IMG/VR virus record: IMGVR_UViG_3300021399_000139
Source of the DNA: an uncultured virus (IMG/VR IMGVR_UViG_3300021399_000139)
Lineage: Duplodnaviria > Heunggongvirae > Uroviricota > Caudoviricetes
DNA length: 64,000 nucleotides
Strand: one strand, 5' to 3'
The notes under the pieces: generated by a model
The model's database searches: none
The model's input: only the letters and a program-made list of their open reading frames with translations
What the model was told of the DNA's origin: nothing
Shown: positions 28,586 through 51,894 of the stretch, in pieces
Position numbering within the stretch: the first letter of the stretch is position 1
Layout: each line of letters begins with the position of its first letter
Translations under genes and position numbers: made by a program

Positions 28586-29749
28586 TCATTCCTTGTATCC
28601 AAGATGCTTCAGCAGCTTGTCAGTTGGACAAGTCATGAAGAAGTCCCTAGCTGACTTGATCTTGCCATCAAGCAAGCCAAATGCAATTCCTGGCATCTTG
28701 AAGTTCTTTGTTATCCAGAGAGCCTTGTCTTTGCGAGTTGGAAGAGAAGCATCGATTTTCAAGTAGTCGCTCCATGCCTTCTCAGTGTCTTCAACAAACT
28801 TCCAGAACCGAGCTTTGCACTCTTCAAGAGCAGGACGGAACTCCTCAAAGTACTCGCATATCTCTTCTATCTCATTTGTGCGGACAAGCTCAATTGCACG
28901 AGCATATGACATCACACCATTTCCTTTGAGATGGTGCGCAGCGACATATGATGGAGACTTCACCTTCACTCTGTTGAACTTGCTGTCGCAGACAACATAG
29001 CCTTCTTCATCCCATGGCATTGCTTTTGTAGCAGCAAGGCACTCGTCAATTGACTTCAGAGGAAAGACCTTTGGAGTGTCAAAGATCTTTGAGAAGACAG
29101 GGTCATCTGTGAAGTAAGTCTCCTCAAAAGTCTCATTGTTGCGCTTTCCAAGGAAGTAGAGCTTGTTCTCTTTGTGAGGCACAACTACACGAGTCCATGG
29201 CGAGCAAAGCTCAAACATGTATGTATAGCCTTCTTCCCAAAGAGCACATAGTCCTTCCTCTTGTAGCTTCTTCTGCCAGCCAGACTTCTCAAGGACTACA
29301 TCAAGCTGCTCAGCGACAATGTCTCCAAAGAATTGGTACTTGCAGCCAATCTGCTCTGCAATAGGTGCCTTAGAAGCAAGAATAGTCCCATTAGTAGAGA
29401 CAAGAAGGTTGTCTCCAACATTCACAATCTTAATCAAACTTCCGTCGATTTTTTCTCCGCAGCGAGCAGTTGACCAGTCAATCTTTGGGCAATAGCTCTC
29501 TCCCCAATTTCCAAATTTTGTAAATGGAAATGAGACAATCTCATTAGTGTCTTCATTGAGAATCAGCCCACGGCACTCACGCACAATAGGAAGACTAAAG
29601 TCCGAATCTATCTGGCTATATTTAAGCATCAAGAGATTCATGCCATTCCACTGCTCTCTTGACATAGTCAAGCAGTAAGGCTTCTCAGACAGCAGCTTCT
29701 CCCAGTCAGAATGCTGCTCTATGAAATACTGTACATTAAGTTTCTTCAT
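28586..29749 (-). CDS. T4 Rnl1-like RNA ligase
   Basis: ECRG, PFTKFGN, EKIDGSLI, FEL, EGYVV, RVKVK motifs. Confidence 0.9.
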   Translation of the reverse strand: MKKLNVQYFIEQHSDWEKLLSEKPYCLTMSREQWNGMNLLMLKYSQIDSDFSLPIVRECRGLILNEDTNEIVSFPFTKFGNWGESYCPKIDWSTARCGEKIDGSLIKIVNVGDNLLVSTNGTILASKAPIAEQIGCKYQFFGDIVAEQLDVVLEKSGWQKKLQEEGLCALWEEGYTYMFELCSPWTRVVVPHKENKLYFLGKRNNETFEETYFTDDPVFSKIFDTPKVFPLKSIDECLAATKAMPWDEEGYVVCDSKFNRVKVKSPSYVAAHHLKGNGVMSYARAIELVRTNEIEEICEYFEEFRPALEECKARFWKFVEDTEKAWSDYLKIDASLPTRKDKALWITKNFKMPGIAFGLLDGKIKSARDFFMTCPTDKLLKHLGYKE

Positions 29750-35774: not shown

Positions 35775-35815
35775 AAGTAAATAATATTGTACAAATTAAT
35801 GAAAGAACTTAAACT

Positions 35816-37483
35816 ATGGCAATACGTAGAGTATCAGATTTACCAGAATTGACTTCAATATATCAAAATGCAGACCTTGACAAATGCTTGTTTGAGGTGT
35901 CATACAAGAATGACAACATCTACCAGTCATTTTATGCAAAGGGCAAAACAGTCACAGACAAAGTTGTTGAGAAGATTGGTGGATCTATAGACCTTAATAA
36001 ATATGTCACTAAAGACACAGAACAGCAGATTACTGGATTCAAGTCATTCAGAAATGACAATGGAATAATGGTGAATGGAACATATCTTAGTTCTGTAAAT
36101 GCTAGCGGAGATGCTATAGAAAATTCTTCTAGAGAAGGTGTCATCAAGCAGGTGCCATCACTAAAAGCAGTCAAAGATTTCGTTGAGAACAAAGGATACA
36201 TCACCAGTGAAAGCAAAGAGTGGCAAGAACCATTAGAGATGCTAAAGTCAATGCTAAATGAATCAAATTTATCTGTATATGTCAATTAGGAAAGTGGTGA
36301 TAACACTAAAGATGGCAAAAGTGTATCTACAGCAGTAAAGACTTTTGAAAAAGCTTTAGAGATTGCAAATAAAAGAAAATATATAGGTTCATCGTATTTT
36401 ACAATTTATCTTATTGGAGAATATACTGTTTCAGCAAATTCTTCTGGTGGTTTTAATGCATTACAAGTATATCATCCAGATATGACTGGATCAAGATATG
36501 GTCGTATTCAAGGATATAATCCTCCAGAAGGATCTAGTATTCCAGCAGCAGAAATAAAAATTGATTTTAATGGTATAAGCAATTGGTATTCTACCTGGCT
36601 ATATATATAGTGTAATATTAGAATAGAAAATATAAAGATTACTGCAATATGGGATAAGAATAATACTCGTGGTGTGTCTCCAACAGGTGAGTTTCCAGAA
36701 AATGGAACTTATGCATAGAAAATAAATTATATATATTATGCATCTTGGGCAAGCACAGGTATAACTACACAATATACTGGATTAGTTATTGTTAAAAACG
36801 TAAAAATAACCGGGTTTAGATGGGGTGTTGTAGGTAATGCAAGAATTAATGATGGTGTAGAATTTAATAATTGTACAATATCGTGCGCGCCAGGAAGTAA
36901 TGGGCAAATATACTTTGAGGCACGGTCAAGAATACGTATAAAAGAAATTTGCTAGGAAGTAATTGGCGCAACAAATTAGAATAGCGCAGCTATAGTGCAT
37001 TATGGAGCGCATATAGATGTTGATCAATGCAAAAAGTTTATTGGTAATGATTCAGGTAGTGCATTTACATTTAGATTATATAATACTGCAGTGCCAACAT
37101 ATTTAGATAATCCCACCAATCCTTATGGAATCAAAATATATAAAATAATAGGAGAAGAAAAAGCTGATGGTACAAATTATGAATTTAATATGCGTGATGA
37201 TGTAGGAAAATGGCATTTTCTAGTAAAAAATACTGATAATGATAATACAAAATTAAATAAGCTTAAAAATTATTTAACTAGTATATTTGGTACTTATTCT
37301 AATAAAATATTTGTTGAAGCTGAATCAATCACTCCAAACTTTACAAGTAATACATAGAAGAATAAGCATTTTAACTTTAATTATGGTCCTGGAAGTAATA
37401 AGATAGAAGCTAATTATTCCAAGTAGGCTTTAGATTATTAGATTAAAATTTGCTATTTAAGAGAATCTGATTGGCAGTCATAA
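35816..37483 (+). CDS. 555 aa TAG-recoded tail fibre/tailspike-like protein
   Basis: Open from ATG 35816 to TAA 37483 with only TAGs in frame; VYVN*ESGDNTKDGKSVSTAVKTFEKAL motif typical ahead of beta-helix domains. Confidence 0.75.
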
Positions 37484-37569
37484 ACATAAGTTTTTAAATA
37501 ACTTCAAATAGTTGCTAGATTTTCTACAGCTAGGGTGCCATCTTTTTGAAGCCATTTTGCCACGTCTTG

Positions 37570-38013
37570 TCAGTGAATACGTTTAATGAGATAGTTCAAA
37601 TTTGATGGAAGATCATTGCTTAGATTAAGCTTTATGATAGCTTCATAGACGTCTTCTCCTTCAGCAATGTTCGTATAGTATTCATCATACCCCACAAGTC
37701 CATATTTATAGCATTTGGCATCTATTTCTGCAATTTCTTGAACAGTTGCTAATCTATTATAGCCAGCAAGACAGTGTCTTATAGGATATGAAAAACTGAA
37801 TCTTAAACTTAGTGCTCTAACATTACGTCCCCATCGACGATCTAGCAAGGCAATAGATTCAAGTTTGAATGGATATCCATTGTATTGGTGCTGTTTCCAA
37901 AAATAGTTTCCATTTGTAGATCGATGTTTCAAAGCAAAGTCTATGAACTCTCTAGGAAGCTGCTCGACCTTTGTAGAAGTCATAATCTCAATGTCATCGA
38001 CTAGTAGTTTCAT
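37570..38013 (-). CDS. Hypothetical, DL-tag-like
   Basis: EDVYEAIIKLNL. Confidence 0.7.
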   Translation of the reverse strand: MKLLVDDIEIMTSTKVEQLPREFIDFALKHRSTNGNYFWKQHQYNGYPFKLESIALLDRRWGRNVRALSLRFSFSYPIRHCLAGYNRLATVQEIAEIDAKCYKYGLVGYDEYYTNIAEGEDVYEAIIKLNLSNDLPSNLNYLIKRIH

Positions 38014-38073
38014 ACAACTTAACTATATCAAAAGATATGTGCTATGTTAACCATTGATAGTTGATAGCTTAAA

Positions 38074-38436
38074 TGGTGGACTCGCCGGGAGTCGAACCCG
38101 GGTCTTGCTCAGTCTTTCATGCAACTCATTCACATGCTTAGCTTGCTTAAAGTATGATCAGTCGCAAGCAGCAAGCGGCTTACGCAATCGAGCTTTGGAA
38201 GGATGACTAACCTCAAGCGCCCTTCCACCTTGAGGACGTTGTGCTATGTAGATTAAGCCAGACAAGATACTTGCACATGACCTCTCTTGTCCAACTGCTG
38301 TCTTATAGATTCAAAGAATCAAGCAGCGATCGCATAGTCTGCGTCATTTATTGTTTTTGCATGTTTTAAAGAAGACATACTCTTCTGCATGTATCATCAC
38401 CTTATAGATTCTGCCAATCGATACCGTTACGAGCCC
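38074..38436 (-). ncRNA. ssrA: tmRNA
   Basis: GGGCUCG/CGAGUCC-ACCA acceptor stem with G3:U70; T arm CCGGG-UUCGACU-CCCGG; AUAAAU followed by tag ORF DADYAIAA-UGA. Confidence 0.93.
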
Positions 38437-38442
38437 TTAAAA

Positions 38443-38652
38443 TCACTTCTTAGCCTTACGTCCCTTCTTTGGAGTAGGAATTATGCTTAGACTTGCAATG
38501 CTTAAAGCATCAAGCGTGCTATCATTCTTCTTGAACATTGCAGTCATGAAAGTCTCAAACTTTCGCGCTGCATCAAACATTGTATTAGCTTTTGTATGGA
38601 ATGTCTTTGGCCTACCATCTGAACAGACATATGCAAATGTATAGTCTTGCAT
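38443..38652 (-). CDS. Small hypothetical protein within the RNA island
   Basis: AAGGA RBS, MQDYTFAYVC. Confidence 0.6.
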   Translation of the reverse strand: MQDYTFAYVCSDGRPKTFHTKANTMFDAARKFETFMTAMFKKNDSTLDALSIASLSIIPTPKKGRKAKK

Positions 38653-38679
38653 TTTGTTTTCCTTATTTTGTTGTTTTAA

Positions 38680-38766
38680 TGGTCGAGCTGACTGGAGTCG
38701 AACCAGCATGGTTATACAACCGTCTCCTTAGAAGGGAGGTGCCTTATCCATTCGGCGCACAGCTCG
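38680..38766 (-). tRNA. tRNA-Arg(UCU) with long variable arm
   Basis: CGAGCUG/CAGCUCG-ACCA; loop CU-UCU-AA; A20. Confidence 0.85.
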
Positions 38767-38822
38767 TTGTTTAAATACGAAATTAAATATATCAAATATT
38801 TTCAATTTTGTTAACTTCAAGC

Positions 38823-38897
38823 TGGTGCTGAGTCGTAGAATCGAACTACGATCTTAGGCTTATGAAACCCATAGTTTTCCACTTAGCTTAACCCAGC
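38823..38897 (-). tRNA. tRNA-CAU (Met or Ile2)
   Basis: GCUGGGU/ACUCAGC-ACCA; UU-CAU-AA. Confidence 0.85.
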
Positions 38898-38905
38898 AAA
38901 ATAGA

Positions 38906-39019
38906 CAAGACACATTTTAGACTGGACTCGAACCAGCATCTCCCGAATTATCAGTTCGGCGTTCTACCATTGAACTACATGCCCGAAGCGTGGACACAGA
39001 TTTTTGCTGTTAGTGTCTT
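38906..39019 (-). ncRNA. Wrapper RNA W1 carrying a permuted tRNA-Ile(GAU)-like body
   Basis: AAGACAC-UAACAGCAA...GUGUCUUG enclosing an acceptor hairpin and D, anticodon and T arms. Confidence 0.75.
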
Positions 39020-39167
39020 AGAAAGGATGAGGTGATTATTCTGACTTTTACGGCAACTGTCTGGTATATGCTGAAGCATTCTGTACAAAACAACATCAGC
39101 CTTACAGACATAAACTACACCCCGGAGTTGTTGTCTTCTGCTAGCTGATATCAAGGCTAGCATTAAA

Positions 39168-39582
39168 ATGGTTGAAGGCGCAATAAATGCTATTTGGGAC
39201 TTTTACCCCACCGTACAGCATAATGCAGAGCCCTTAGTCGACACTATCTATTACCGCATAATGCTGCATATCCAGAACCTCCTTATCTGGCAGTGTTGTC
39301 TGCTCTACATCGATTTAGAGCATTGAAATCAACACGACTCATTTTGCATACACCGCTGCTCTGCTGTACGCGGTTCCTGTGAGCGTGACTTGCTGTTAGA
39401 GCCGTAAAAGGAAGCAGAGTCCCCGATGCGGACTTTTACCGCTACCTATATCCAGACAGGCGAATATTTTTTACCTGACACCTTCTCTCGCTCGGGACTC
39501 GTCTCCACCTGCGCAACTAGCTCATGGAACTAGGTCGGATGGTACTCTGCATTTGTACACGAGAGCTTGCTTCTGTTCGAAC
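39168..39582 (-). ncRNA. Unknown structured RNA of about 410 nt with an embedded wrapper motif
   Basis: Noncoding, many helices, two GGUAAAAGUCC hairpins, 3' ACCA. Confidence 0.45.
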
Positions 39583-39586
39583 ATGA

Positions 39587-39666
39587 TGGAGCACGAGACC
39601 GGACTCGAACCGGCAAATTTGCCACATTGGAAGTGTGGTGAGTTGACCAATTCCTCTCACTCGTGC
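39587..39666 (-). tRNA. tRNA-Gly(UCC)
   Basis: GCACGAG/CUCGUGC-UCCA; CU-UCC-AA. Confidence 0.92.
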
Positions 39667-39671
39667 AAAAA

Positions 39672-39835
39672 CAAGACGCAAGATTTACATTGTTCTTTAC
39701 TGTCTTCAACATAGAAAAAAGACGAGCTCAATTCACAAGGTTTGAACTTGCAGTATGGCAGAGCATTACCATTTCATTGATTCATTTTGAGTGAATTATG
39801 TTTACCGATTGTTTGACTTTGCAGTATTGCGTCTT
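39672..39835 (-). ncRNA. Wrapper RNA W2
   Basis: AAGACGC-AAUACUGCAA...GCGUCUUG; internal T-arm-like hairpin. Confidence 0.65.
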
Positions 39836-40109
39836 TAAAAACAAAAATTCGCAGTGCCACCTCCACTTTTATTGTGTGAATCATTGGGACGAGAATAAGT
39901 TTCATGTCATTTCGCTCGTCGTTACCTGGGTTGTTGCGAATAATATCATCTCATCCGACTGAGACCTAGTGGAACAGGTTTCGCAGGACTTCCCACAACT
40001 ATTTGTATTTCCACAATATCCCATTGTGTTTCGGGTATGCACCATTACTGGCTGCCGTTGAAGCATTAAGCACACTGAGTTTGACTCCTCATCTGAGATG
40101 ACAGAGTTT

Positions 40110-40184
40110 TGGAGCTACCTGAAGTACTCGCAACTCCGTATTCCGTCTTACAAGGACGGCGCCTAACTTCTCAGCCAAGGTAGC
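40110..40184 (-). tRNA. tRNA-Thr(UGU)
   Basis: GCUACCU/AGGUAGC-UCCA; CU-UGU-AA. Confidence 0.88.
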
Positions 40185-40195
40185 AATTAAAAAGT

Positions 40196-40327
40196 CAAGA
40201 CACATGTTTTCTGTCAATTGCTCTAAGCATCTGAGCTACAGGCGAAATCATCACGTGGTTCGCCTGGAGGGACTCCAACCATCGACCCATTGATTACCCA
40301 TTTAGATGTATTTGCTGCTAGTGTCTT
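40196..40327 (-). ncRNA. Wrapper RNA W3 with circularly permuted tRNA
   Basis: 3' half (T arm, CAGGCGA-ACCA) precedes 5' half (UCGCCUG, D arm, AUUGA). Confidence 0.8.
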
Positions 40328-40336
40328 TAAAAGAAA

Positions 40337-40429
40337 CAAGACCCGTATATTTGTGGGAATTGAACCCACTCGTTTTAGTTTTGTAAAAACTAATTCTTAA
40401 TCCATAAGTAGATTGCAGTTACGGGTCTT
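40337..40429 (-). ncRNA. Wrapper RNA W4 (anticodon arm UAC + T arm)
   Basis: AAGACCCG-UAACUGCAA...CGGGUCUUG. Confidence 0.7.
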
Positions 40430-40435
40430 TCAAAG

Positions 40436-40509
40436 TCAGTCTGGTCGGATTTGAACCGACGTGGACCTCAGCCCAAGTGAGGTGGGAAACCAGGCTCCCC
40501 AACAGACTG
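40436..40509 (-). tRNA. tRNA-Pro(UGG), CCA not encoded
   Basis: CAGUCUG/CAGACUG-A; CU-UGG-GC. Confidence 0.9.
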
Positions 40510-40525
40510 TAAATCTTCAAATCAT

Positions 40526-40585
40526 CAAGACGCGTTTAACTTTCGAATTTAACAGATTCGGGGTTTAAGTTGCTGTATGCGTCTT
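40526..40585 (-). ncRNA. Wrapper RNA W5 (anticodon stem-loop GUU only)
   Basis: Internal CGAAU-CUGUUAA-AUUCG. Confidence 0.7.
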
Positions 40586-40590
40586 TCAAA

Positions 40591-40668
40591 TGGTGGACCT
40601 AAGGAGCTACGATCTCCTCGCCTCCTGAATGCAAATCAGGCGCTCTACCAATAATGAGCTATAGGCCC
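40591..40668 (-). tRNA. tRNA-Ala(UGC)
   Basis: GGGCCUA/UAGGUCC-ACCA with G3:U70. Confidence 0.92.
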
Positions 40669-40722
40669 ATAAGAACTTCATGATAACTATTCATAACTTT
40701 TAATTATCATGAAGTTTAAACA

Positions 40723-40857
40723 CTAGATGCATTTTTGCATTACAGTCGCGTCTTCCACCTTCCGCCATATCCCACATTTAAGCAGGATAGCTGGACTCGA
40801 ACCAGCACGTCTTTATAGACAACTGTTCCCATTAGCATATATTGCTGTTAGCATCTA
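40723..40857 (-). ncRNA. Wrapper RNA W6 with permuted Leu-type tRNA
   Basis: Variable arm, T arm, UAUCCUGC-loop-GUGGGAUA, then D arm UGGCGGAA...GACGC. Confidence 0.8.
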
Positions 40858-40859
40858 AA

Positions 40860-40934
40860 TGGCTCATCAGGCTGGACTCGAACCAGCAGTCGCTCGGTTA
40901 ACAGCCGAGTGCTTCACCGTTAAGCTACTGATGA
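40860..40934 (-). tRNA. tRNA-Asn(GUU)
   Basis: UCAUCAG/CUGAUGA-GCCA. Confidence 0.92.
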
Positions 40935-40944
40935 ATAAATCAAA

Positions 40945-41091
40945 CAAGACACGCTGATGCTCTTTTTGTATGTAAGCATCAGATCACCAAGCTCACATTT
41001 TAAGCCATTGGAGCTTTTGATGGCCGATAGTCCTTTGCTATCTTGTTTTGTGTTTTTATGATCTAATTTAACTTTGCAGTTGACGTGTCTT
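40945..41091 (-). ncRNA. Wrapper RNA W7
   Basis: AAGACACG-UCAACUGCAA...CGUGUCUUG. Confidence 0.65.
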
Positions 41092-41308
41092 CAAATAGCA
41101 TCCTTTTTAACTGAATCTTACATCAGTCTCCGTACTTTAGGACAACGTTTAGCAACTAGTATTTCTGCTGCTATCTCTTTTCCTCATTTAAACTCGAAGG
41201 AAGAGCGAAACACGAGTTTCATCTACATGCATATTGATGATAGAGATTATAGGGAATGACTTTTCAGTCATTGCCTCCACCAATGTGTTTTGAGAAAACA
41301 CATAAAAC

Positions 41309-41394
41309 TGGTAGCGGGTGTGGGAAGTGCGCCCAACGAGGATTTCTCCGGTAGGTTATGGGCCTACTGACTTTGACTTCTAGTCTAACCCGCA
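41309..41394 (-). tRNA. Initiator-like tRNA-Met(CAU) with long variable arm
   Basis: 1:72 mismatch; GUAGG-CCCAUAA-CCUAC; ACCA end. Confidence 0.75.
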
Positions 41395-41545
41395 ATCTAA
41401 ATTTCGTCATTCCCATGAAAAACAACTAGCAAAGGAGAAAAAAGCCAGTTGATAACTTCCGGGCCAATGCATGCAAACAAACAACTAATCTATCAACTTG
41501 CTATGCATAAGTTTTTCTCTTAACCAATACTGACTTACTAATTGC

Positions 41546-41597
41546 CAAGATACATCAATCTATACCCAAAGATCTATAATGTTGCTGTATGTATCTT
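41546..41597 (-). ncRNA. Wrapper RNA W8 (minimal)
   Basis: AAGAUAC-AUACAGCAA...GUAUCUUG. Confidence 0.65.
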
Positions 41598-41602
41598 AAG
41601 TC

Positions 41603-41697
41603 GTCCACGCTAATCTACCATCAATGCATTGTCTGCTGCATTTAAGATAGACAGCCGCTCGGAGCTTGAGGACCTGTTTAACGACGCTCCGACGTCT
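41603..41697 (-). ncRNA. Pistol self-cleaving ribozyme
   Basis: P1 GACG/CGUC; loop UCGGAG pseudoknots with CUCCGA; UUAAACAG; P2 GUCC/GGAC; GCG; P3; GU cleavage site. Confidence 0.85.
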
Positions 41698-41813
41698 TTA
41701 CCACCAACTATCACCTGTCAAAGATCAACTACAAGTAGTATTTACTCATCAACTACTTGCATCTATATTATATCAAACTCCAAAGAATTTGTAAACGTTG
41801 CATCTTAAATTTT

Positions 41814-41889
41814 TGGTTGGGGATCCGAGACTCGAACTCGGACGTACAGGATCAAAACCTGCTCTGCTGGCCAATTACAGTAATCCCCA
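41814..41889 (-). tRNA. tRNA-Gln(UUG)
   Basis: UGGGGAU/AUCCCCA-ACCA; UU-UUG-AU. Confidence 0.92.
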
Positions 41890-41896
41890 ATGCAAT

Positions 41897-42127
41897 TCAC
41901 ATGTTGAAGTACTGCCAGTAGCAGTTGACGCCGTTCTTAAGCGTCACCATGTAGTAGTCAAGAGTCTTTGGCTTGATCCATCCACAGTTGATAGATCCAG
42001 GGTGCTTTGTACAGAAGAATGCTGCATCGTCTTCAATGTGCTGCTTTGCTGCTACATTGTTCTTGAACGTCTTACAGCAGACAGAAGTAAGTCTCTCATT
42101 GTCTTTACGAAATGCTACAATTGTCAT
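41897..42127 (-). CDS. Hypothetical protein
   Basis: AAGGAG RBS. Confidence 0.7.
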   Translation of the reverse strand: MTIVAFRKDNERLTSVCCKTFKNNVAAKQHIEDDAAFFCTKHPGSINCGWIKPKTLDYYMVTLKNGVNCYWQYFNM

Positions 42128-42140
42128 GGTTGATTCTCCT

Positions 42141-42479
42141 TTATTTCCAAAACTCTACGTGCTTTGGAAGATTAAGTCTCCAAGAACACACTTTCAAATG
42201 CAGTCCATGATTAGGAAGCACTGCAACTTTTGCAAAAGTGCTACCAGATGTCTCATCACATTGGATGTTTCTTGCATATGGCCTTTTGTCAATGTAGCGC
42301 TTGAGAGCATCATAGACATTCACTCCATAGATGATTGCATCTGGATGTGGCTCATCTGGTGTAGCTAAGTCAGCTATGTATATGTCATTGATGTCATCAA
42401 AGCCAAACATTGACTTGGAGAACCAGACTTTCCATGTCTTGATTTTCTGTCTAAGTTTCTTCACTTTATTGACATTCAT
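42141..42479 (-). CDS. Hypothetical protein
   Basis: Early promoter upstream. Confidence 0.7.
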   Translation of the reverse strand: MNVNKVKKLRQKIKTWKVWFSKSMFGFDDINDIYIADLATPDEPHPDAIIYGVNVYDALKRYIDKRPYARNIQCDETSGSTFAKVAVLPNHGLHLKVCSWRLNLPKHVEFWK

Positions 42480-42564
42480 AGTGGCACTTTTCCTTTAGTT
42501 GTTTGACATCGTAATTATATCAAACTACTATAGTAGTGTTAACTCTAGCCAATGCGCATATTCA

Positions 42565-43080
42565 TCAATTTATGTCTATGCACAACTCTTCTTGGATTAC
42601 AAGCTGCTCAAGATTGTCTATCTTGAAGATGCACTGTCTATAATCATCCCACTTCACAACATTGCCTGCTTGTTCAATCTCAATGAGATAGTGCTTTCGT
42701 AGTGCACCAAGAACCTGCTTCACTATCTCATGCTTTATGTCTGTCAAGTTCTTGGCAGTCATCTTGAAAGCCCACGAGACTTCTTTAAGACAGCCATAGA
42801 AGTACTCTATGCTGACTGCCATGTCAGGCATCTTGCCTTGCCAACTAAGACATCTACGGTACAAATGGTCTGTTGCCCATGTAAATTCTATTCTTCTATG
42901 GTTTGCATACAATGGACGGACACGGCTGTTCTTGAAGACATCTAAGTACATCTTATGGCTGCGTGGACTCCACTCAACCATGAATTGGTCTACATTGAAG
43001 TGCTTCAGCAGCACTTTGTACAAGATGTCAGCTCTCTTCTTTGTTGCTCGCATTGCAGAAGGAATTATATCAAAATACAA
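42565..43080 (-). CDS. Hypothetical, DL-tag-like (start probably about 43053)
   Basis: DNLEQLVIQEEL. Confidence 0.65.
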   Translation of the reverse strand: MYFDIIPSAMRATKKRADILYKVLLKHFNVDQFMVEWSPRSHKMYLDVFKNSRVRPLYANHRRIEFTWATDHLYRRCLSWQGKMPDMAVSIEYFYGCLKEVSWAFKMTAKNLTDIKHEIVKQVLGALRKHYLIEIEQAGNVVKWDDYRQCIFKIDNLEQLVIQEELCIDIN

Positions 43081-43099
43081 ATAAGATGTTAACTAAAGA

Positions 43100-43177
43100 T
43101 GGTGGGCCCGAGTGGGAACGATCCACTGCCTCAGGATTTTCAGTCCCGTATACGACAACCAACTATACGACAGACCC
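43100..43177 (-). tRNA. tRNA-Phe(GAA)
   Basis: GGGUCUG/CGGGCCC-ACCA; CU-GAA-AA. Confidence 0.88.
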
Positions 43178-43184
43178 ATTAGAA

Positions 43185-43259
43185 TGGTCACAGTGACGAG
43201 TGCTGCCCTCGTTTCCCCCGTCTTAAAAGGACGATGCCTAACTGTTCGGCCACACTGTG
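43185..43259 (-). tRNA. tRNA-Lys(UUU)
   Basis: CACAGUG/CACUGUG-ACCA; CU-UUU-AA. Confidence 0.88.
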
Positions 43260-43283
43260 TTATTAATTTAAATATGGCGTTTC

Positions 43284-43685
43284 TTATGTACTACTATATA
43301 AGTCTAAACTGATCATTGCTGAATATCGATCTAATTTGCCATACAATGGATTTGATATTCGTCTATCAAGACAATCTTTCCAGCTTATTGTGTAGTTACC
43401 AAGAAAAAATGACTTACCTATGAACAAGAACCAATCTAACTCTTCTATAGTGCAAGACTCCAGTCTCTTTGTTCCACCATCTTCAAGCATCACTTCACCA
43501 TAAGTTGTATCTTTGCCAACATCATATGTCTTAATTGACTTGACTGCTCGATATTGGTCGAGCTCAAACCAATTGTAGCCAAAGAGCTTTAGATATATCA
43601 TTTTAAGCTCATCAAGTGAGAACCTACATGGCCATCTCCAATTGCCTGGAGGATCAAACCTATGTGCTTTTAGCTTAGCATTCAT
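43284..43685 (-). CDS. Hypothetical, DL-tag family
   Basis: NPLYGKLDRYSAMISLDL. Confidence 0.7.
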   Translation of the reverse strand: MNAKLKAHRFDPPGNWRWPCRFSLDELKMIYLKLFGYNWFELDQYRAVKSIKTYDVGKDTTYGEVMLEDGGTKRLESCTIEELDWFLFIGKSFFLGNYTISWKDCLDRRISNPLYGKLDRYSAMISLDLYSST

Positions 43686-43704
43686 GAATGTTTACCTATA
43701 AAAT

Positions 43705-43791
43705 TGGTCCCGGAAGGGAGATGCGCGCTCCCACGAAGTTTCCTTCAACAGATTTTGAGTCTGTCATGTCTGCTTATTCCATCATTCCGGG
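43705..43791 (-). tRNA. tRNA-Leu(CAA)
   Basis: CCCGGAA/UUCCGGG-ACCA; CU-CAA-AA; variable arm. Confidence 0.88.
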
Positions 43792-43833
43792 TTATATAAA
43801 ATCTTTTAGCTTTGTCAACTAAACCAATAATAG

Positions 43834-44061
43834 CTAAGCCAATCTTGGTATGAAACAACTTGTAACTTGTAACTTGACATTTGGCAGATTTAAGTCAATG
43901 AATATTTTGCACTCTTCAAAAGTATTGAACTCTGCTATAAAGTCAAAACTAATAGATGAATAGACATTCTTCACTTTGTAGTACGAACCTTCTAGCATCC
44001 ATGTGCCGCCACCGCACTCACACGCTTTCAAAGTCTTGATTTTGTCAAATTCCAACTTCAT
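43834..44061 (-). CDS. Hypothetical, DL-tag-like
   Basis: NTFEECKIFIDL. Confidence 0.6.
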   Translation of the reverse strand: MKLEFDKIKTLKACECGGGTWMLEGSYYKVKNVYSSISFDFIAEFNTFEECKIFIDLNLPNVKLQVTSCFIPRLA

Positions 44062-44119
44062 GACTTAAATTATATCAAGGCTTCTATTCTTTGTTAACTT
44101 AGTACCTCAAATGAAGTAT

Positions 44120-44194
44120 TGGCGTCGCATACCGGTACCGCCCCGGTGTCACCTCCTTGAAAGAGAGGGGATCTAACTTTTAATCAAATGCGAC
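44120..44194 (-). tRNA. tRNA-Glu(UUC)
   Basis: GUCGCAU/AUGCGAC-GCCA; CU-UUC-AA. Confidence 0.88.
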
Positions 44195-44304
44195 TAAGAC
44201 GTGAAACCTAAGAGATGAGCCAAAACCACAGGTTTTCTTCCTGTTCAAAAATTCTCATCGCCGCCGTTTAGACATTTTGCTTGGTTGATCTATTCTTAGG
44301 TTTC

Positions 44305-44458
44305 TAGGAGTTGCATCTAGTGCATTCAACCAGACTCTGCCACAGTAGCACAAGCCGTGCTATAGAAGGATTTGAACCTTCGATTAGGGATACTAGGACT
44401 ACTAAAGCTACCGGTCTTGCGGAAGTAGCCACCTAATTCTAGATGTTGTTTGCTCCTA
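44305..44458 (-). ncRNA. Circularly permuted Ser-type tRNA mimic with a variant outer stem
   Basis: UAGGAG/CUCCUA and CAUCUAG/CUAGAUG outer helices; T arm precedes D arm. Confidence 0.7.
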
Positions 44459-44474
44459 TCTAAATCTTTAAAAT

Positions 44475-44556
44475 CGGAGAGAGCGTGACTTGCACACGCA
44501 CACCCTTTCGGGCGACTCCTTAGCAAGGAGTTCCAATACTATTATGGGATCTCTCC
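44475..44556 (-). tRNA. tRNA-Ser(GCU), CCA not encoded
   Basis: GGAGAGA/UCUCUCC-G; variable arm. Confidence 0.88.
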
Positions 44557-44564
44557 AAAATCGA

Positions 44565-44717
44565 ATACGGCGTTCCCGTCTAGCAGGGTCATGAACCTTG
44601 GACTACGTAGACTCAAGAGCTACTTGTGGTGGCTGGCAACATCTTCCGGAAGTTTTACGCGCTTGGCTGTTTAGCGCCTCCAGTTGGCACTTTTTCGCTC
44701 ATCAGGCATGCCGTCAT
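44565..44717 (-). ncRNA. 6S RNA-like candidate
   Basis: Ends pair (ACGGC/GCCGU); 3' side CUUGAG...GUUCAUGA-CCCUGC..ACGG resembles 6S. Confidence 0.35.
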
Positions 44718-44777
44718 ACCTCCAGATTTAATGCTCGCCGCGGAGATAAATCTGGAAAAATTTTATTGCAAGTCTAG

Positions 44778-44863
44778 TGGTCGTCGGGGTTGGACTCGCA
44801 CCAACGGTGTTTCTAATGTGGCAGATTTACAGTCTGCTGCGCTCGCTACTTAGCCACCCGACG
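44778..44863 (-). tRNA. tRNA-Tyr(GUA) with C1:G72
   Basis: CGUCGGG/CCCGACG-ACCA; CU-GUA-AA. Confidence 0.88.
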
Positions 44864-45007
44864 ATTAAATGACTTCTGCATTTAGCACTTACCACCACGC
44901 CGACCAGTTGACTGTTAAGAACATTCAGCGTTCTTTTTATTGTTCCATTGGAGTAGGAAGCGACCGCGCCCTGCCATGCAGAAAAATAGTATTTCACTTC
45001 AATAAAA

Positions 45008-45144
45008 CAAGATCCAAGTGGCCAAACCACTATGATACGCTGCTCTATCAGCTGAGCTACATCCTCATTTCTGGCGAGGATGGCTGGACTTAAACCAGCG
45101 ACCAGCGGCTTAACATGCAAAATGAACATTGCTGTATGGATCTT
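45008..45144 (-). ncRNA. Wrapper RNA W9 with circularly permuted tRNA
   Basis: T arm, CAUCCUC-GCCA-GAAAU-GAGGAUG, then D arm GCUC..GAGC. Confidence 0.8.
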
Positions 45145-45148
45145 AAAT

Positions 45149-45241
45149 TGGTAGGAGAGGTGGGACTCGAACCCACGATTGATGTAATCTCAAGAACCAA
45201 CTACGTGTCTACGGCTTATAAGACCGCGTCGCTACTCTCCT
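45149..45241 (-). tRNA. Atypical tRNA-Ile(UAU), no D arm, large variable region
   Basis: AGGAGAG/CUCUCCU-ACCA; GCGGU-CUUAUAA-GCCGU; canonical T arm. Confidence 0.7.
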
Positions 45242-45552
45242 ATTAAATCCGGGAGGGTTTGTTTGTCGGAGCCATCGTATCAAATACGCTTGCGGCCAAT
45301 TCCAACAGAGCAAGCTGAACGTGATGCATGCACGTAGCTTCCACCCACAACTCTTTGCAAGTAGCATCTACTGAACCGTCAAGCAGTTCCCGGCAGATGC
45401 CTTTTGTAAAAGCGAACTAGCACTATCTATTTGACATATAGAAGATTCCCAGCTCCGAACTGAGTCTTTCAACAACTAAGTCTATAGCCATCGTGTTGTC
45501 AATACGCCAACTATAGTCCTAGCAGACGCGTTTATCTCGTCAATCTTGTCGT

Positions 45553-45659
45553 GCCATAAGAAAAAGCTAACTTAAGCCATGCTGGAGTCGAACCAACTTC
45601 AGTCTCCTGTACCCGAGACTAATCCTAGCCGTTAGAATGAGTGGCATAGTCTTTCTCTC
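45553..45659 (-). ncRNA. tRNA-like RNA with extended acceptor helix and non-canonical anticodon loop
   Basis: D-like arm, AGUCUC/GAGACU stem, GUUGG-UUCGACU-CCAGC T arm, no CCA. Confidence 0.5.
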
Positions 45660-45911
45660 ATTTGTTCCGTAGCGCACTATAGATACTGTGCACTACCGCG
45701 TTTGGCCTAAAAACCTGTTTTTTCGTCGCCAAACCGACGGGCAAAAGCTCTCAACTTCTGCCAGAGGCTCACAACCTCTCTTAGTCTTACTCACTAGTCT
45801 GTCAAGTAAGACTGCCATCAACTATAAATGTCAAAGATCAAATTCAACAGCGTTCTGCTGTTGGTAGCAATTATATCAAGTTTTTTCGAGTTTGTTAACT
45901 ACTTTGTCAAG

Positions 45912-45975
45912 AAAAAATAAAACTTCCACATTTTGTGTGGAAGTCTTGATATAACTGCATTTGTAGACTTCCACG
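45912..45975 (-). terminator. Terminator with a competing antiterminator
   Basis: ACUUCCACA/UGUGGAAGU plus U tract; upstream GUGGAAGUCU is also complementary to AGACUUCCAC. Confidence 0.8.
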
Positions 45976-46059
45976 TCAAGAAATTATATAACGTTCAAAT
46001 GCTGGGTTTTTGCTGAATCCAGTTATTTGCAACGCTTTAAATTGTCTTTCCATTTTCAT
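45976..46059 (-). CDS. Putative 27 aa leader peptide MKMERQFKALQITGFSKNPAFERYIIS
   Basis: Stop codon abuts the antiterminator strand. Confidence 0.6.
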   Translation of the reverse strand: MKMERQFKALQITGFSKNPAFERYIIS

Positions 46060-46133
46060 CTTACAAAATATATATACTCATGAAAGATGCACACCTTTTG
46101 AAAATATTTCAACTATTTTCTAGGCAATTTGTC

Positions 46134-46559
46134 TTAAGTTTCATCAGTCTCAACAAGAGCACGCATCTGGTCAATGACTTTGTAGCACTTCTCAGACGAG
46201 CAGTAGGTGTTGCCATACTTCTTGAAGAAGCGCTTCATAGTCTTCAAAACATTTTTTGCTTCATTGACCATTTTCTTCTCATTAGTGGTATCAATGAACT
46301 CCCAGTCACGGACCATCGTAGACATGTCAGTTCCAGCGCCAACCTCGCTGAGCTTGAACTTCTTAGCAAGACCATAGACAAGCTGGTTTGCTTTGTCCCA
46401 GCCACCGACTTTGTTTGTGTCAACCCAGATCTGCACAGTTACACCTGTCTTAGATACCGAGCACTTGAAGCCTTTAGGCAAGTTTTCAAGGATACGAGCC
46501 TTCAAAGATGATGTCACTGTCTTCTGCGATGGACGCTTGTAGTTGTCGAATGTTGCCAT
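46134..46559 (-). CDS. Hypothetical protein
   Basis: Early cassette and RBS. Confidence 0.75.
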   Translation of the reverse strand: MATFDNYKRPSQKTVTSSLKARILENLPKGFKCSVSKTGVTVQIWVDTNKVGGWDKANQLVYGLAKKFKLSEVGAGTDMSTMVRDWEFIDTTNEKKMVNEAKNVLKTMKRFFKKYGNTYCSSEKCYKVIDQMRALVETDET

Positions 46560-46632
46560 TTGTCTTCTTCTCCTTTAGTAGTGGTGGTTGACAATGCTGA
46601 TTATATCAAAAGCCTAGAGATTTGTTAATTGC

Positions 46633-47031
46633 TCATAGCATGAAGTCTAATTTGATTTTCAACGCTTCATAGTTGCTGATGCCAAAGAAGATGTTTTGGA
46701 TCATCTTGTCATTGACCTGGTCATAAAAGTACTTTATTGTCCCTAGGCTTTCTGGTGTATCTGGTCCTTCATCAACAAAATCATCATTCTCATCAAAACT
46801 AGACATGCCAAAATAGCGTTTGGGCATATGTGGCGTTCTTACGTATACTTCCCATGTCTTTTTGTTCCGCTTGAAGACAAGACCCATCTTCTTCAAAGCT
46901 GCATGCATCAATGCGTCATTCTTCTTCCACTTTTCTTCTAAAGACTTTGTCATATAGCTTTCCTCAAGCAACAGGCTTAACTTCTTTGAACGAGTCGATG
47001 CGTACTCCAAGAGAGTTGATTTTTCTCTCAA
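46633..47031 (-). CDS. Hypothetical, DL-tag family (start probably about 46953)
   Basis: NIFFGISNYEALKIKLDF. Confidence 0.7.
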   Translation of the reverse strand: MREKSTLLEYASTRSKKLSLLLEESYMTKSLEEKWKKNDALMHAALKKMGLVFKRNKKTWEVYVRTPHMPKRYFGMSSFDENDDFVDEGPDTPESLGTIKYFYDQVNDKMIQNIFFGISNYEALKIKLDFML

Positions 47032-50319: not shown

Positions 50320-51894
50320 TTAAATAAGATTCTTTATTGCATCCTCAACAGGCTGATATCGTTCAACATTCAACGCTTCAACAAGAACTTCATATGGATC
50401 AGTCTTGTTTGACATAAGCATCTTGAACTGTGTCTGACTGAAGCCAGAACAAAGAACAACACCATTTTCATTCTGCTGAAGTGGAATAGTTCCAGTTCTA
50501 GAATTGACATTCCAGAATATGATTCGTGGAAACTTATATCCAGCCGCTTCCCATTTCTGACGAATTCTCTCAAACAATGCATTCTTTGAAGCAGAGTAGT
50601 CTGAAGGTCTGTTCCAATAAGAATATCCTCCACCAAAATCAATTGCAGAATTGAACTCCATGTCACTGATTATGCAAAGATCTGGAATGTCTTCTTGCTT
50701 AAGATGATTGCGAACAGACGTCTCAAGCATAAGATCCATTACTGCCTCAATGTTTGTGCTAGCACACTCATCATGCTGATAAGTGATGTTCAGCTTCTCA
50801 GCAAGAGACTTTGCATTGCTGAAGTCAACATACTGAGGATGATCAGAGAAAGTAATGTACTTGTTTTTGAATGGACCAGTCAAATGCTCAGAACAATAGA
50901 TTCCAAGCGCATTGCAGACCTCAAGTGCTGTCATTTTAGAATGTGGATCAACTTGTGTTGTCATGCTTCCACTTCCATCGCAACAGCAAATAAGACTACC
51001 ATTAATCTTTACTTCAGGCAATGCCTTCCACATAGCTTCAAGCGCAGCATCAGCAGTGATTTGAGAACGACGCCAACCAAAATTGCCATTCTTGCTGTAT
51101 GCATGGACGATGTCGCATGGGAAGTTTGCTGAAGAGTTGATCTTAGCTTCACCATTCTTCAAGGCATCAAGAAATGCGCGGCGGCGGGTCTCATCATTAC
51201 GGAGAAATGCAGCATTGTACTTGATGTTTGCCTTCGAAGGAACAGCTTCATAGTCAATCTCACTCCACTGCTTTGCAGACATCTTGACCTCAATGACCTT
51301 CAAGTAAGCACGAAGCTTTGCCAAAGTCTTGCGGTACTGCCTGTCGGTCATCTCAAGTGCAGATGCAAGCTTGTGAGCAAGTGCACGAGATGCAGCAGAA
51401 GAAGTGTTGATTGAGGGAAGCCACTTTGCCAAAAGTGTCACTGGCTTGCCTTCATCATATGCCTGAAGATCTGCAGTGAGCTTGTCACCGATGTATCCAA
51501 CAACATCATTCCACAGAGAAGTTCCATCAAGAACAAAGAGATCATCCTCACGTCCATATTCTGCAACAAGAGGAATAAGCTTCTTCACAAGCTCTGGACG
51601 AGTGTTAGCAAGCCACTTAAAGCAGATGCGGAAAGAACGACGCTCGCCCATGCCGTTGCCGCGGATGTCGCGAAGCATGAACATCCACTTAAGAGCAAGA
51701 AGAGCATTGAAGTAGAATGCATCTGAGAACATCTTCTCAACTTCTGAGTCAGACTTACTGCGAAGTGAAGACACTGCAAAGTTGATGTCAAGAAGTGGAT
51801 TTCCTGCTGTCTTGAATCCTACAGCTCCATTCTCGGTCACCGAGACTTCGTCATTCATTGTTGCCTTAAGGGCACTCTCGAACTTACTAGACAT
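50320..51894 (-). CDS. DUF2828 helical domain + vWA protein (Ro60/TROVE-like architecture)
   Basis: TENGA, RDIRG..GER, YGREDDL, AKWLPS, DGSGSM MIDAS, ISDMEF, IFWNV. Confidence 0.8.
   Translation of the reverse strand: MSSKFESALKATMNDEVSVTENGAVGFKTAGNPLLDINFAVSSLRSKSDSEVEKMFSDAFYFNALLALKWMFMLRDIRGNGMGERRSFRICFKWLANTRPELVKKLIPLVAEYGREDDLFVLDGTSLWNDVVGYIGDKLTADLQAYDEGKPVTLLAKWLPSINTSSAASRALAHKLASALEMTDRQYRKTLAKLRAYLKVIEVKMSAKQWSEIDYEAVPSKANIKYNAAFLRNDETRRRAFLDALKNGEAKINSSANFPCDIVHAYSKNGNFGWRRSQITADAALEAMWKALPEVKINGSLICCCDGSGSMTTQVDPHSKMTALEVCNALGIYCSEHLTGPFKNKYITFSDHPQYVDFSNAKSLAEKLNITYQHDECASTNIEAVMDLMLETSVRNHLKQEDIPDLCIISDMEFNSAIDFGGGYSYWNRPSDYSASKNALFERIRQKWEAAGYKFPRIIFWNVNSRTGTIPLQQNENGVVLCSGFSQTQFKMLMSNKTDPYEVLVEALNVERYQPVEDAIKNLI

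Follow-up and report, generated by a model that had tools for sequence, protein, structure and literature searches.

The DNA analysed here (the window) is a stretch of 64,000 nucleotides from an uncultured virus of the Caudoviricetes (IMG/VR record IMGVR_UViG_3300021399_000139). Its content is phage-like, including a Ro60/TROVE-like gene, two RNA ligases, phosphoesterases and helicase fragments. Nothing resembling it was found among GenBank phages with blastn and tblastn, and near-identical DNA was found in runs labelled as animal-gut metagenomes. At positions 45912 to 46059, on the minus strand like nearly all genes of the window, a short open reading frame (ORF) is followed by segments that can fold either as a terminator or as an antiterminator, and the two parts very probably form a conserved switch. 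This element is located where a block of early protein genes gives way to an island of tRNA, transfer-messenger RNA (tmRNA) and small-RNA genes. The island extends over approximately 38000-45900 and contains a tmRNA, 11 confident tRNAs, weaker tRNA-like matches, two YrlA-like RNAs and matches to the Pistol ribozyme.

Anatomy and conservation of the element

The leader mini-ORF (MKMERQFKALQITGFSKNPAFERYIIS), taken from the ORF list and from inspection of the sequence, occupies positions 45976-46059 of the minus strand, starts with ATG and comprises 27 codons followed by a TGA (45978-45976). A single base (45975) separates it from segment A (GUGGAAGUCU, 45965-45974, minus strand), which sequence and fold identify as the 5′ arm of the antiterminator. 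Segment B (AGACUUCCAC, 45937-45946, minus strand), recognised from sequence and covariation, is shared by both structures, as it pairs with A in the antiterminator and with segment C in the terminator. Segment C (UGUGGAAGU, 45930-45922) is followed by the U-run UUUAUUUUUU (45921-45912), so that this last part of the element, detected by a terminator scan and by folding, covers positions 45912-45930 of the minus strand. An earlier description of the locus, made from its letters without database searches (the sequence-only reading), had proposed the 27-codon frame ending one base before A, the pairings between the three segments and the U-run terminator; all of these are confirmed by the sequence and, for the pairings, by the fold energies.

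In the window, the A:B hairpin has an energy of -14.6 kcal/mol and an 18-base loop, and the B:C intrinsic terminator has an energy of -14.8 kcal/mol, with 12 pairs and a 5-nt loop before the U-run. The two structures are mutually exclusive through the shared segment B and nearly equal in energy. B:C is also the longest-stemmed match of the terminator scan in positions 37000-47000 and, when a 76-base stretch is folded, the centroid structure corresponds to it (z = -2.6). The triple word GGAAG..CTTCC..GGAAG is found once in the 64 kb, against 0.04 expected copies, and at least one match was present in 4 of 100 shuffles.

The gene just upstream of the module, which codes for a protein of 141 amino acids (46559-46134, minus strand), has 101 metagenome homologues, most of them on ENA/Logan contigs. 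Six of its loci, obtained from a JGI metagenome scan, were compared, and four of them contain the module: L004 and L006, which are near-identical to each other, L007 and L008. Together with the window these are five sequences, four of them independent. At the other two loci (L005 and L009) the gene is followed by other DNA, and at a distant locus found via its Ro60-like protein (L001, 53% identical) there is a promoter before the tRNAs but no module. In L007, the module is 1.8 kb away from the 141-residue protein gene, with two other ORFs between them, and still immediately precedes the promoter, the Pistol ribozyme and the tRNAs. As the module follows a different ORF in this case, it belongs to the head of the island and not to the upstream gene. 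Further relatives were sought in larger collections. Searches of IMG/VR with the 141-residue protein, its alignment and two DNA patterns produced no relatives, or only chance matches inside unrelated genes, and an alignment search of GTDB genomes produced no match. A covariance model of the element (R1) recovered only its five training sequences in 158,134 bases. None of the Rfam 15 families, among them the T-box, the riboswitches and the catalogued leaders, was found in 45910-46135 at E <= 1, nor at the gathering score.

The alignment of the five sequences supports both pairings. For A:B (11 pairs), 90.9% of the positions are paired, vs 29-47% in slid controls, with two compensatory pairs; for B:C (12 pairs), the corresponding figures are 100% vs 38-66%, with three compensatory pairs. 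In L004 and L006, A has changed from U to C and B from A to G relative to the window, while C keeps its U and pairs as G-U. Since A and B have changed together in these loci and C has not, A must be considered to track B independently of C. In L008, the three segments change in concert at one position, and the U-run is weak. When the nascent RNA is made to end at B, the minimum-energy fold contains A:B in the five sequences. With the whole leader, the energies obtained by forcing A:B or B:C, respectively, are -30.3 and -33.2 kcal/mol in the window, -42.7 and -42.2 in L004, -41.7 and -38.1 in L006, -46.7 and -46.3 in L007, and -44.8 and -54.5 in L008; that is, in four of the five sequences the full-length states differ by no more than about 4 kcal/mol. 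The forced-state energies and the nascent folds consequently point to a two-state switch in which A:B would form first unless something holds A. Two other roles for these segments were also considered. A promoter in the A-B loop of the window (TTGACG..TTATAT) was rejected, as its spacing is poor and its sequence is not kept in L004, L007 or L008. It is also unlikely that A, B and C are protein-binding repeats serving the downstream promoter, as the distance from C to its -35 box ranges, by our own count, from ~8 to 30 bases among the relatives.

The frame is kept together with the switch. Its ATG is aligned in the five sequences, and the distance from ATG to stop (84, 78, 78, 78 and 75 bases in the window, L004, L006, L007 and L008) is always a multiple of three, giving frames of 27, 25, 25, 25 and 24 codons; the indels of the leader are six and three bases long and, therefore, preserve the frame. 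The stop is located one base before A in every sequence, being TGA in four of them and TAA in L008. The leader frame is stop-free in four of the five sequences, and the other two frames hold from none to three stops. Since shuffles of the leader composition stay open in 0.16-0.30 of cases and an in-frame distance has a probability of 1/3, chance retention of the frame, leaving out the window because it was chosen for its ORF, would be expected in a few per cent of cases (roughly 0.01-0.05 by our own estimate), which is suggestive but not decisive. Thus, the frame and segment A, on whose conservation the sequence-only reading had staked its proposal, are both kept in four independent versions.

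The encoded peptide, by contrast with its frame, is poorly conserved. The leader peptides are MKTSKDITARQLDSFKPANECYFVS in L004, the same with one change in L006, MKTIKDIIARQLDGRKPANESYFVL in L007 and MATTR-TAG-SKAYLLACNKQADECYAL in L008, and a hand count on the alignment indicates that L004 and L007 differ at seven codons, one of them synonymous, with no excess of third-position changes. A changing peptide in a kept frame fits a frame whose translation matters, and not its product. In a DNA contig (X3) that is ~96% alike to the window, a single change was found within the element among the 19 of its 28 changes that were listed: 46006 G>A, which converts AAC into the synonymous AAT. Taking these observations together, namely the kept ATG, frame, stop and segments A, B and C, the compensatory changes and the different upstream gene in L007, it is very likely that this locus has a mini-frame linked to a conserved terminator/antiterminator switch.

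Leader codons and the tRNAs of the island

The leader peptide has exactly 15 kinds of residue, as the sequence-only reading had counted, and these were claimed to be the same 15 amino acids for which tRNAs are located downstream. With its default settings, ARAGORN detects in the island tRNAs for M, G, T, P, A, N, Q, F, S and Y (one-letter code), a tRNA with the anticodon CTA that is amber-suppressor-like, and the tmRNA. Rfam adds three tRNA matches (38920-38978, 43708-43791 and 45152-45241), and, when the ARAGORN threshold is relaxed, Leu(caa) and Glu(ttc) are found in addition and the 45149-45241 gene is assigned to Tyr; by our own reading, the latter may carry UAU and thus be Ile(UAU). The match at 38920-38978 (minus strand) obtains 50.8 bits against the Rfam tRNA model over model positions 7-64 only and, as it has a GAU anticodon loop and no acceptor stem, it is Ile(GAU)-like by our own reading. 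No tRNA for Lys or Arg was found in the island by ARAGORN (default and relaxed), by Rfam or by BLAST with the tRNA-Lys and tRNA-Arg of the relatives, although 5 of the 27 leader residues are K or R.

The proposed correspondence between the two sets is not confirmed. The permutation check against random 27-mers that accompanied the claim was run with the detected tRNAs, drawing the 27-mers from the proteins of the window: 16 of the 27 leader residues have a phage tRNA with the strict set (P = 0.13) and 22 of 27 with the relaxed set (P = 0.11), neither of which is significant. Only the unverified set of 15 residues would give 27 of 27 (P = 0.004). In addition, the sequence-only reading had stressed the absence of C, D and V from the window peptide, and the leaders of the relatives contain the three residues. 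D is present in the leaders of L004, L006 and L007, and a tRNA-Asp in the islands of L004 and L007; for C and V no tRNA was seen in the parts compared of the relatives' islands, which are incomplete. The caveat that the codons CGT and TCT are not covered by the phage tRNAs was borne out.

Ribosome, RNA sensor or small gene

The start of the frame has to be considered before any role of the ribosome. A conserved box, TGAGTATATATAT (46068-46080, minus strand), of which the window has one exact copy, is found 9-12 bases before the leader ATG. It is also present in L004, L006 and L007 (3 of 17 loci compared) and, in a looser version, in L008, and it is a candidate for an (extended) -10 promoter element, with which the transcript would be leaderless or nearly so. 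Several genes elsewhere in this phage, for instance those at 29749, 38013 and 58425, start 7-9 bases past a -10 box and look leaderless as well. From the box and from this spacing, a leaderless start of the mini-ORF, which the sequence-only reading had mentioned as a possibility, appears plausible.

We tentatively favor, with somewhat less than even confidence, a ribosome-dependent attenuator of the leader-peptide type, possibly leaderless, that would sense translation in general and not a matched tRNA pool. In this model, RNA polymerase would reach the element after transcribing the upstream gene or after starting at a weak local promoter, the latter giving the leaderless mini-ORF, and would transcribe the frame of 24-27 codons, A, B, C and the U-run. 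A ribosome following closely would cover A when placed on the stop codon, allowing B:C to pair and transcription to terminate at about 45912. If the ribosome were late, stalled further up or absent, A:B would pair once B had been made, leading to read-through into the island. The footprint of a terminating ribosome extends ~12 bases downstream and would cover most of A and, since the five sequences all have their stop codon next to this segment, a ribosome is the natural candidate for holding it. The lack of a codon run and of a conserved peptide argues that such a device would sense the general capacity or speed of translation. Of the attenuator proposed by the sequence-only reading, then, the anatomy, now with conservation and covariation behind it, is supported, and the sensing of the depletion of exactly matching tRNAs is not; the translation of the frame, the promoter role of the box and a translation-dependent read-through are what we infer from these features.

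Several observations weigh against this attenuator model. No Shine-Dalgarno (SD) sequence is found upstream of the leader ATG, as had been noted before and was confirmed by inspection, and an AAGGAG-like box is present at 20 of the 38 gene starts inspected in this phage. The conserved TGAGTATATATAT box, the leaderless-looking genes and the precedents proposed in Deinococcus deserti (see below) make this lack less damaging, but the box is not among the matches of the consensus promoter scan, the local promoter is putative, and there is another promoter upstream (46628-46600); if transcripts came solely from it, the leader AUG would be internal as well as SD-less. A regulatory codon run for a sensed amino acid was looked for in the leader ORF and was not found, as no codon occurs in tandem more than once and the commonest one, AAA, has three scattered copies; no specific signal is therefore evident. 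The L008 frame is interrupted at codon 6 by a TAG, readable only if the L008 phage decodes this codon as that of the window does. With only four independent sequences, the statistics of the ORF are weak, and the fact that the whole frame forms a stable, covarying hairpin is the pattern expected of a non-coding structured RNA.

A dependence of the island on read-through was also looked for and was not found. A strong phage promoter (TTAACA-17-TGATATAAT), found by the promoter scan at 45898-45870 of the minus strand, 14 bases past the U-run, coincides with the separate promoter placed before at 45869-45899, and there are six more inside the island. Because the island has its own promoters, read-through would only add expression, or else the element would mainly end an upstream or local transcript. 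Furthermore, a terminator followed by a promoter is the general layout of this phage. It has 26 near-identical promoters (GTTAACA-N17-TGATATAAT) on the minus strand, including the one past the U-run and others, for instance, at 62318-62290, at 57296-57268, in the 47395 region and at 20311-20283, and many of them carry a perfect hairpin (CCTAGAGTTAACAGACTCTAGG plus a T-run) with the -35 box in its loop, which look like combined terminator-promoter cassettes between early genes.

The interruption in L008 has to be judged together with the use of TAG in this phage group. In the window, a 528-codon frame (25104-23518, minus strand) contains 10 TAGs and no other stop, and a GIY-YIG homing-endonuclease frame (50177-49233, minus strand) contains six and matches its PHROG family across them. 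Further TAG-rich frames are located at 35813-37483 (plus strand) in the window, at 13144-14178 in L004 and at 4124-5287 in L007, and, of the four TAG-interrupted frames scanned in L004 and L007, three have matches to families of homing, HNH or other endonucleases. Some of these frames are homing endonucleases (GIY-YIG, HNH) that have 3-13 in-frame TAGs and match their families across these codons; most other genes use the standard code. Together with an amber-suppressor-like tRNA(CTA), found by ARAGORN with default settings at 38680-38766 (minus strand), the frames indicate that TAG is decoded in some genes of this phage group, and the TAG of the L008 leader may thus be readable. That the TAG-rich genes are largely selfish endonucleases suggests that their expression depends on the suppressor. 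A more elaborate form of the attenuator model, to which we give a rather low probability, combines these elements in a gauge of translation capacity at the door of the tRNA, tmRNA and suppressor island of a TAG-recoding phage. Slow decoding, due to damaged or scarce tRNAs or to few free ribosomes, would favor the antiterminator and lead to extra transcription, and in L008 the TAG would add a negative feedback by the suppressor: if this were true, completion of the frame, and hence termination, would require the phage's own suppressor tRNA, so that the tRNA responsible for the change of genetic code would directly limit its own expression.

The main alternatives differ in what they assign to the frame. 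It could be incidental, with the leader hairpin acting as a sensor for a protein, a small molecule or an RNA and with A, B and C as the expression platform. In this hairpin (45975-46053, minus strand), obtained from individual folds, the 5′ half of the ORF is paired with the 3′ half and the base is formed by the AUG region with part of A. It is predicted in each of the five sequences when folded alone, with six compensatory pairs among the 21 of the inner stems (83.5% paired) and three among the seven of the base helix (85.7% paired), although these covariation counts are biased towards the helices because they were derived by RNAalifold from the same alignment. The predicted fold of the 226-base leader is, moreover, much better than those of its shuffles (z = -4.5; none of 200 was as good). 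This non-coding switch would also account for the covariation of A:B and B:C, the TAG in L008 and the lack of an SD. It would not explain, however, why the ATG, the frame and the stop abutting A are kept in the five sequences, even through the change from TGA to TAA and with indels of six and three bases, and it finds no support in Rfam or in the 141-residue protein, which has no known RNA-binding family or fold and is not adjacent to the module in L007. We consequently regard it as unlikely, although it is a serious competitor; in fact, if the frame were untranslated, the element would still be a new conserved structured leader RNA without an Rfam family. A protein antiterminator encoded upstream, in a HutP-like layout, was rejected, as the 141-residue protein has no Pfam match above the cut-off and its AF2 model (pLDDT 86.6) gives no PDB match with Foldseek at E <= 0.001, although the protein may bind RNA even so.

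Similarly unlikely, and as deserving of attention, is a self-contained small gene, in which a transcript of ~150 bases, from the local box to B:C, would be a small RNA and/or code for a peptide of 24-27 residues, with A:B as an alternative or structural pairing and B:C as terminator and insulator. The layout, with a -10-like box, a structured RNA and a strong terminator, agrees with this idea, and so do the independence of the island from read-through and the rule that terminators directly precede promoters in this phage, many of whose promoters have a built-in terminator hairpin. A plain terminator, on the other hand, does not need two mutually exclusive structures that are close in energy in four of the five sequences; the covariation of A with B where C is unchanged (L004 and L006) points to selection on A:B itself, and the peptide sequence is poorly conserved. 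Much less can be said for the model in which the leader codons mirror the phage tRNA set and depletion or cleavage of those host tRNAs raises the phage tRNAs. The RNA ligases, phosphoesterases and Ro60-like protein make tRNA damage a plausible pressure, the joint presence of D and tRNA-Asp in relatives agrees with it, and with the unverified set of 15 residues a random 27-mer would fit in 0.4% of trials; but the missing Lys and Arg tRNAs, the insignificant coverage, the uncovered codons and the relatives' C and V residues make it very unlikely. The least credible account, in our opinion, is chance, in which the third repeat and the open frame next to an ordinary terminator would both be accidental. 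AT-rich intergenic DNA often contains short repeats and frames of 27 codons, and 20% of the shuffles of the window frame stay open, but so few triple words are expected per window, and the element is kept, with compensatory changes, in four independent sequences and is mobile relative to the upstream gene.

The RNA island and known attenuators

Behind the promoter, the RNA elements of the island begin with a Pistol self-cleaving ribozyme (45663-45739, minus strand; Rfam RF02679, 38.6 bits vs a gathering score of 34.5), which is found in the same relative place in L004 (10818-10893, 47.6 bits) and L008 (797-851, 35.0 bits). A second one is located at 41631-41697 (minus strand), and both window copies are directly behind phage promoters. 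As their position is kept in the relatives, these ribozymes may be involved in the processing of island transcripts. Between the first ribozyme and the next tRNA-like gene, the region 45250-45638 (minus strand) is represented by contigs from RNA libraries of three studies, one of which has 394 bases with no mismatch, and two of which end at 45638 without a loose end. The contigs are a weak indication that a stable and abundant RNA of some 390 bases is made here. This region has no Rfam family, and its 5′ part shares 95% identity with an L004 sequence identified by ARAGORN as a 91-base tRNA-Pro(cgg). The RNA data consist of three RNA-library runs and one DNA run, as assembled contigs, which cannot show transcript ends, and the absence of RNA contigs from 45684-46700 carries no information on expression.

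At the far end of the island there is a tmRNA (38074-38436, minus strand) with the tag peptide DADYAIAA and with a promoter of its own at 38814-38786 or 38050-38022. Two YrlA-like (Y RNA-like) matches, at 45035-45107 and 40193-40301 (both minus strand), are under the Rfam gathering score and have permuted tRNA-like arms. The Ro60/TROVE-like gene (50320-51894, minus strand; 524 amino acids) matches phrog_850 with E = 4.5e-123 and, together with the YrlA-like RNAs, suggests a phage-borne Ro/Y-RNA pair, near RNA ligases and phosphoesterases.

For amino-acid operons, attenuation by a leader peptide is textbook knowledge, with the classical attenuators of the trpL, hisL, pheL and leuL type; to our knowledge, little has been described of how phages regulate their tRNA genes. 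In the open-access full-text literature we found no account of leader-peptide attenuation before phage tRNA genes. If the attenuator model is correct, a conserved, covarying switch preceded by a frame that has no codon bias would be a simple means of sensing how fast decoding proceeds in general, and would provide a testable link between translation stress, caused for instance by host anticodon nucleases, and phage counter-measures. The setting of the switch is a phage with a tmRNA, RNA-repair genes, a Ro60/Y-RNA pair and an amber suppressor.

The element shares with the leader-peptide attenuators of amino-acid operons, as summarised in PMC4007540, a short frame, an intrinsic terminator, an antiterminator that uses one of its arms and a position in which a ribosome at the end of the frame would block the antiterminator. 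Even the classical 1:2 helix has a counterpart, as the 5′ part of the leader pairs here with A. Unlike them, it has no regulatory codon run and no amino-acid pathway, its targets being phage tRNA, tmRNA and other RNA genes; it also has no SD, is maybe leaderless, and precedes a block with its own strong promoter. Leaderless leader peptides have been proposed in D. deserti (PMC4007540). The mini-frame would resemble them in beginning at or next to the 5′ end of the transcript, in lacking an SD and in having a -10 box just a few bases before it. In contrast, those peptides have a high content of the cognate amino acid and are encoded before genes for tRNA synthetases or biosynthesis, and the start proposed here is a predicted one. 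The bmrB leader of Bacillus subtilis bmrCD (PMC4191407) is described as a ribosome-mediated attenuator that senses general translation stress. Although attenuators of this type serve bacterial drug-efflux or resistance genes in response to antibiotics, and the present element belongs to a phage and precedes RNA genes, its setting is similar in having Gram-positive-like extended -10 and AAGGAG SD boxes and, as in this type of attenuator, the frame has no amino-acid-specific runs, so that any slowing of the ribosome would favor the antiterminator.

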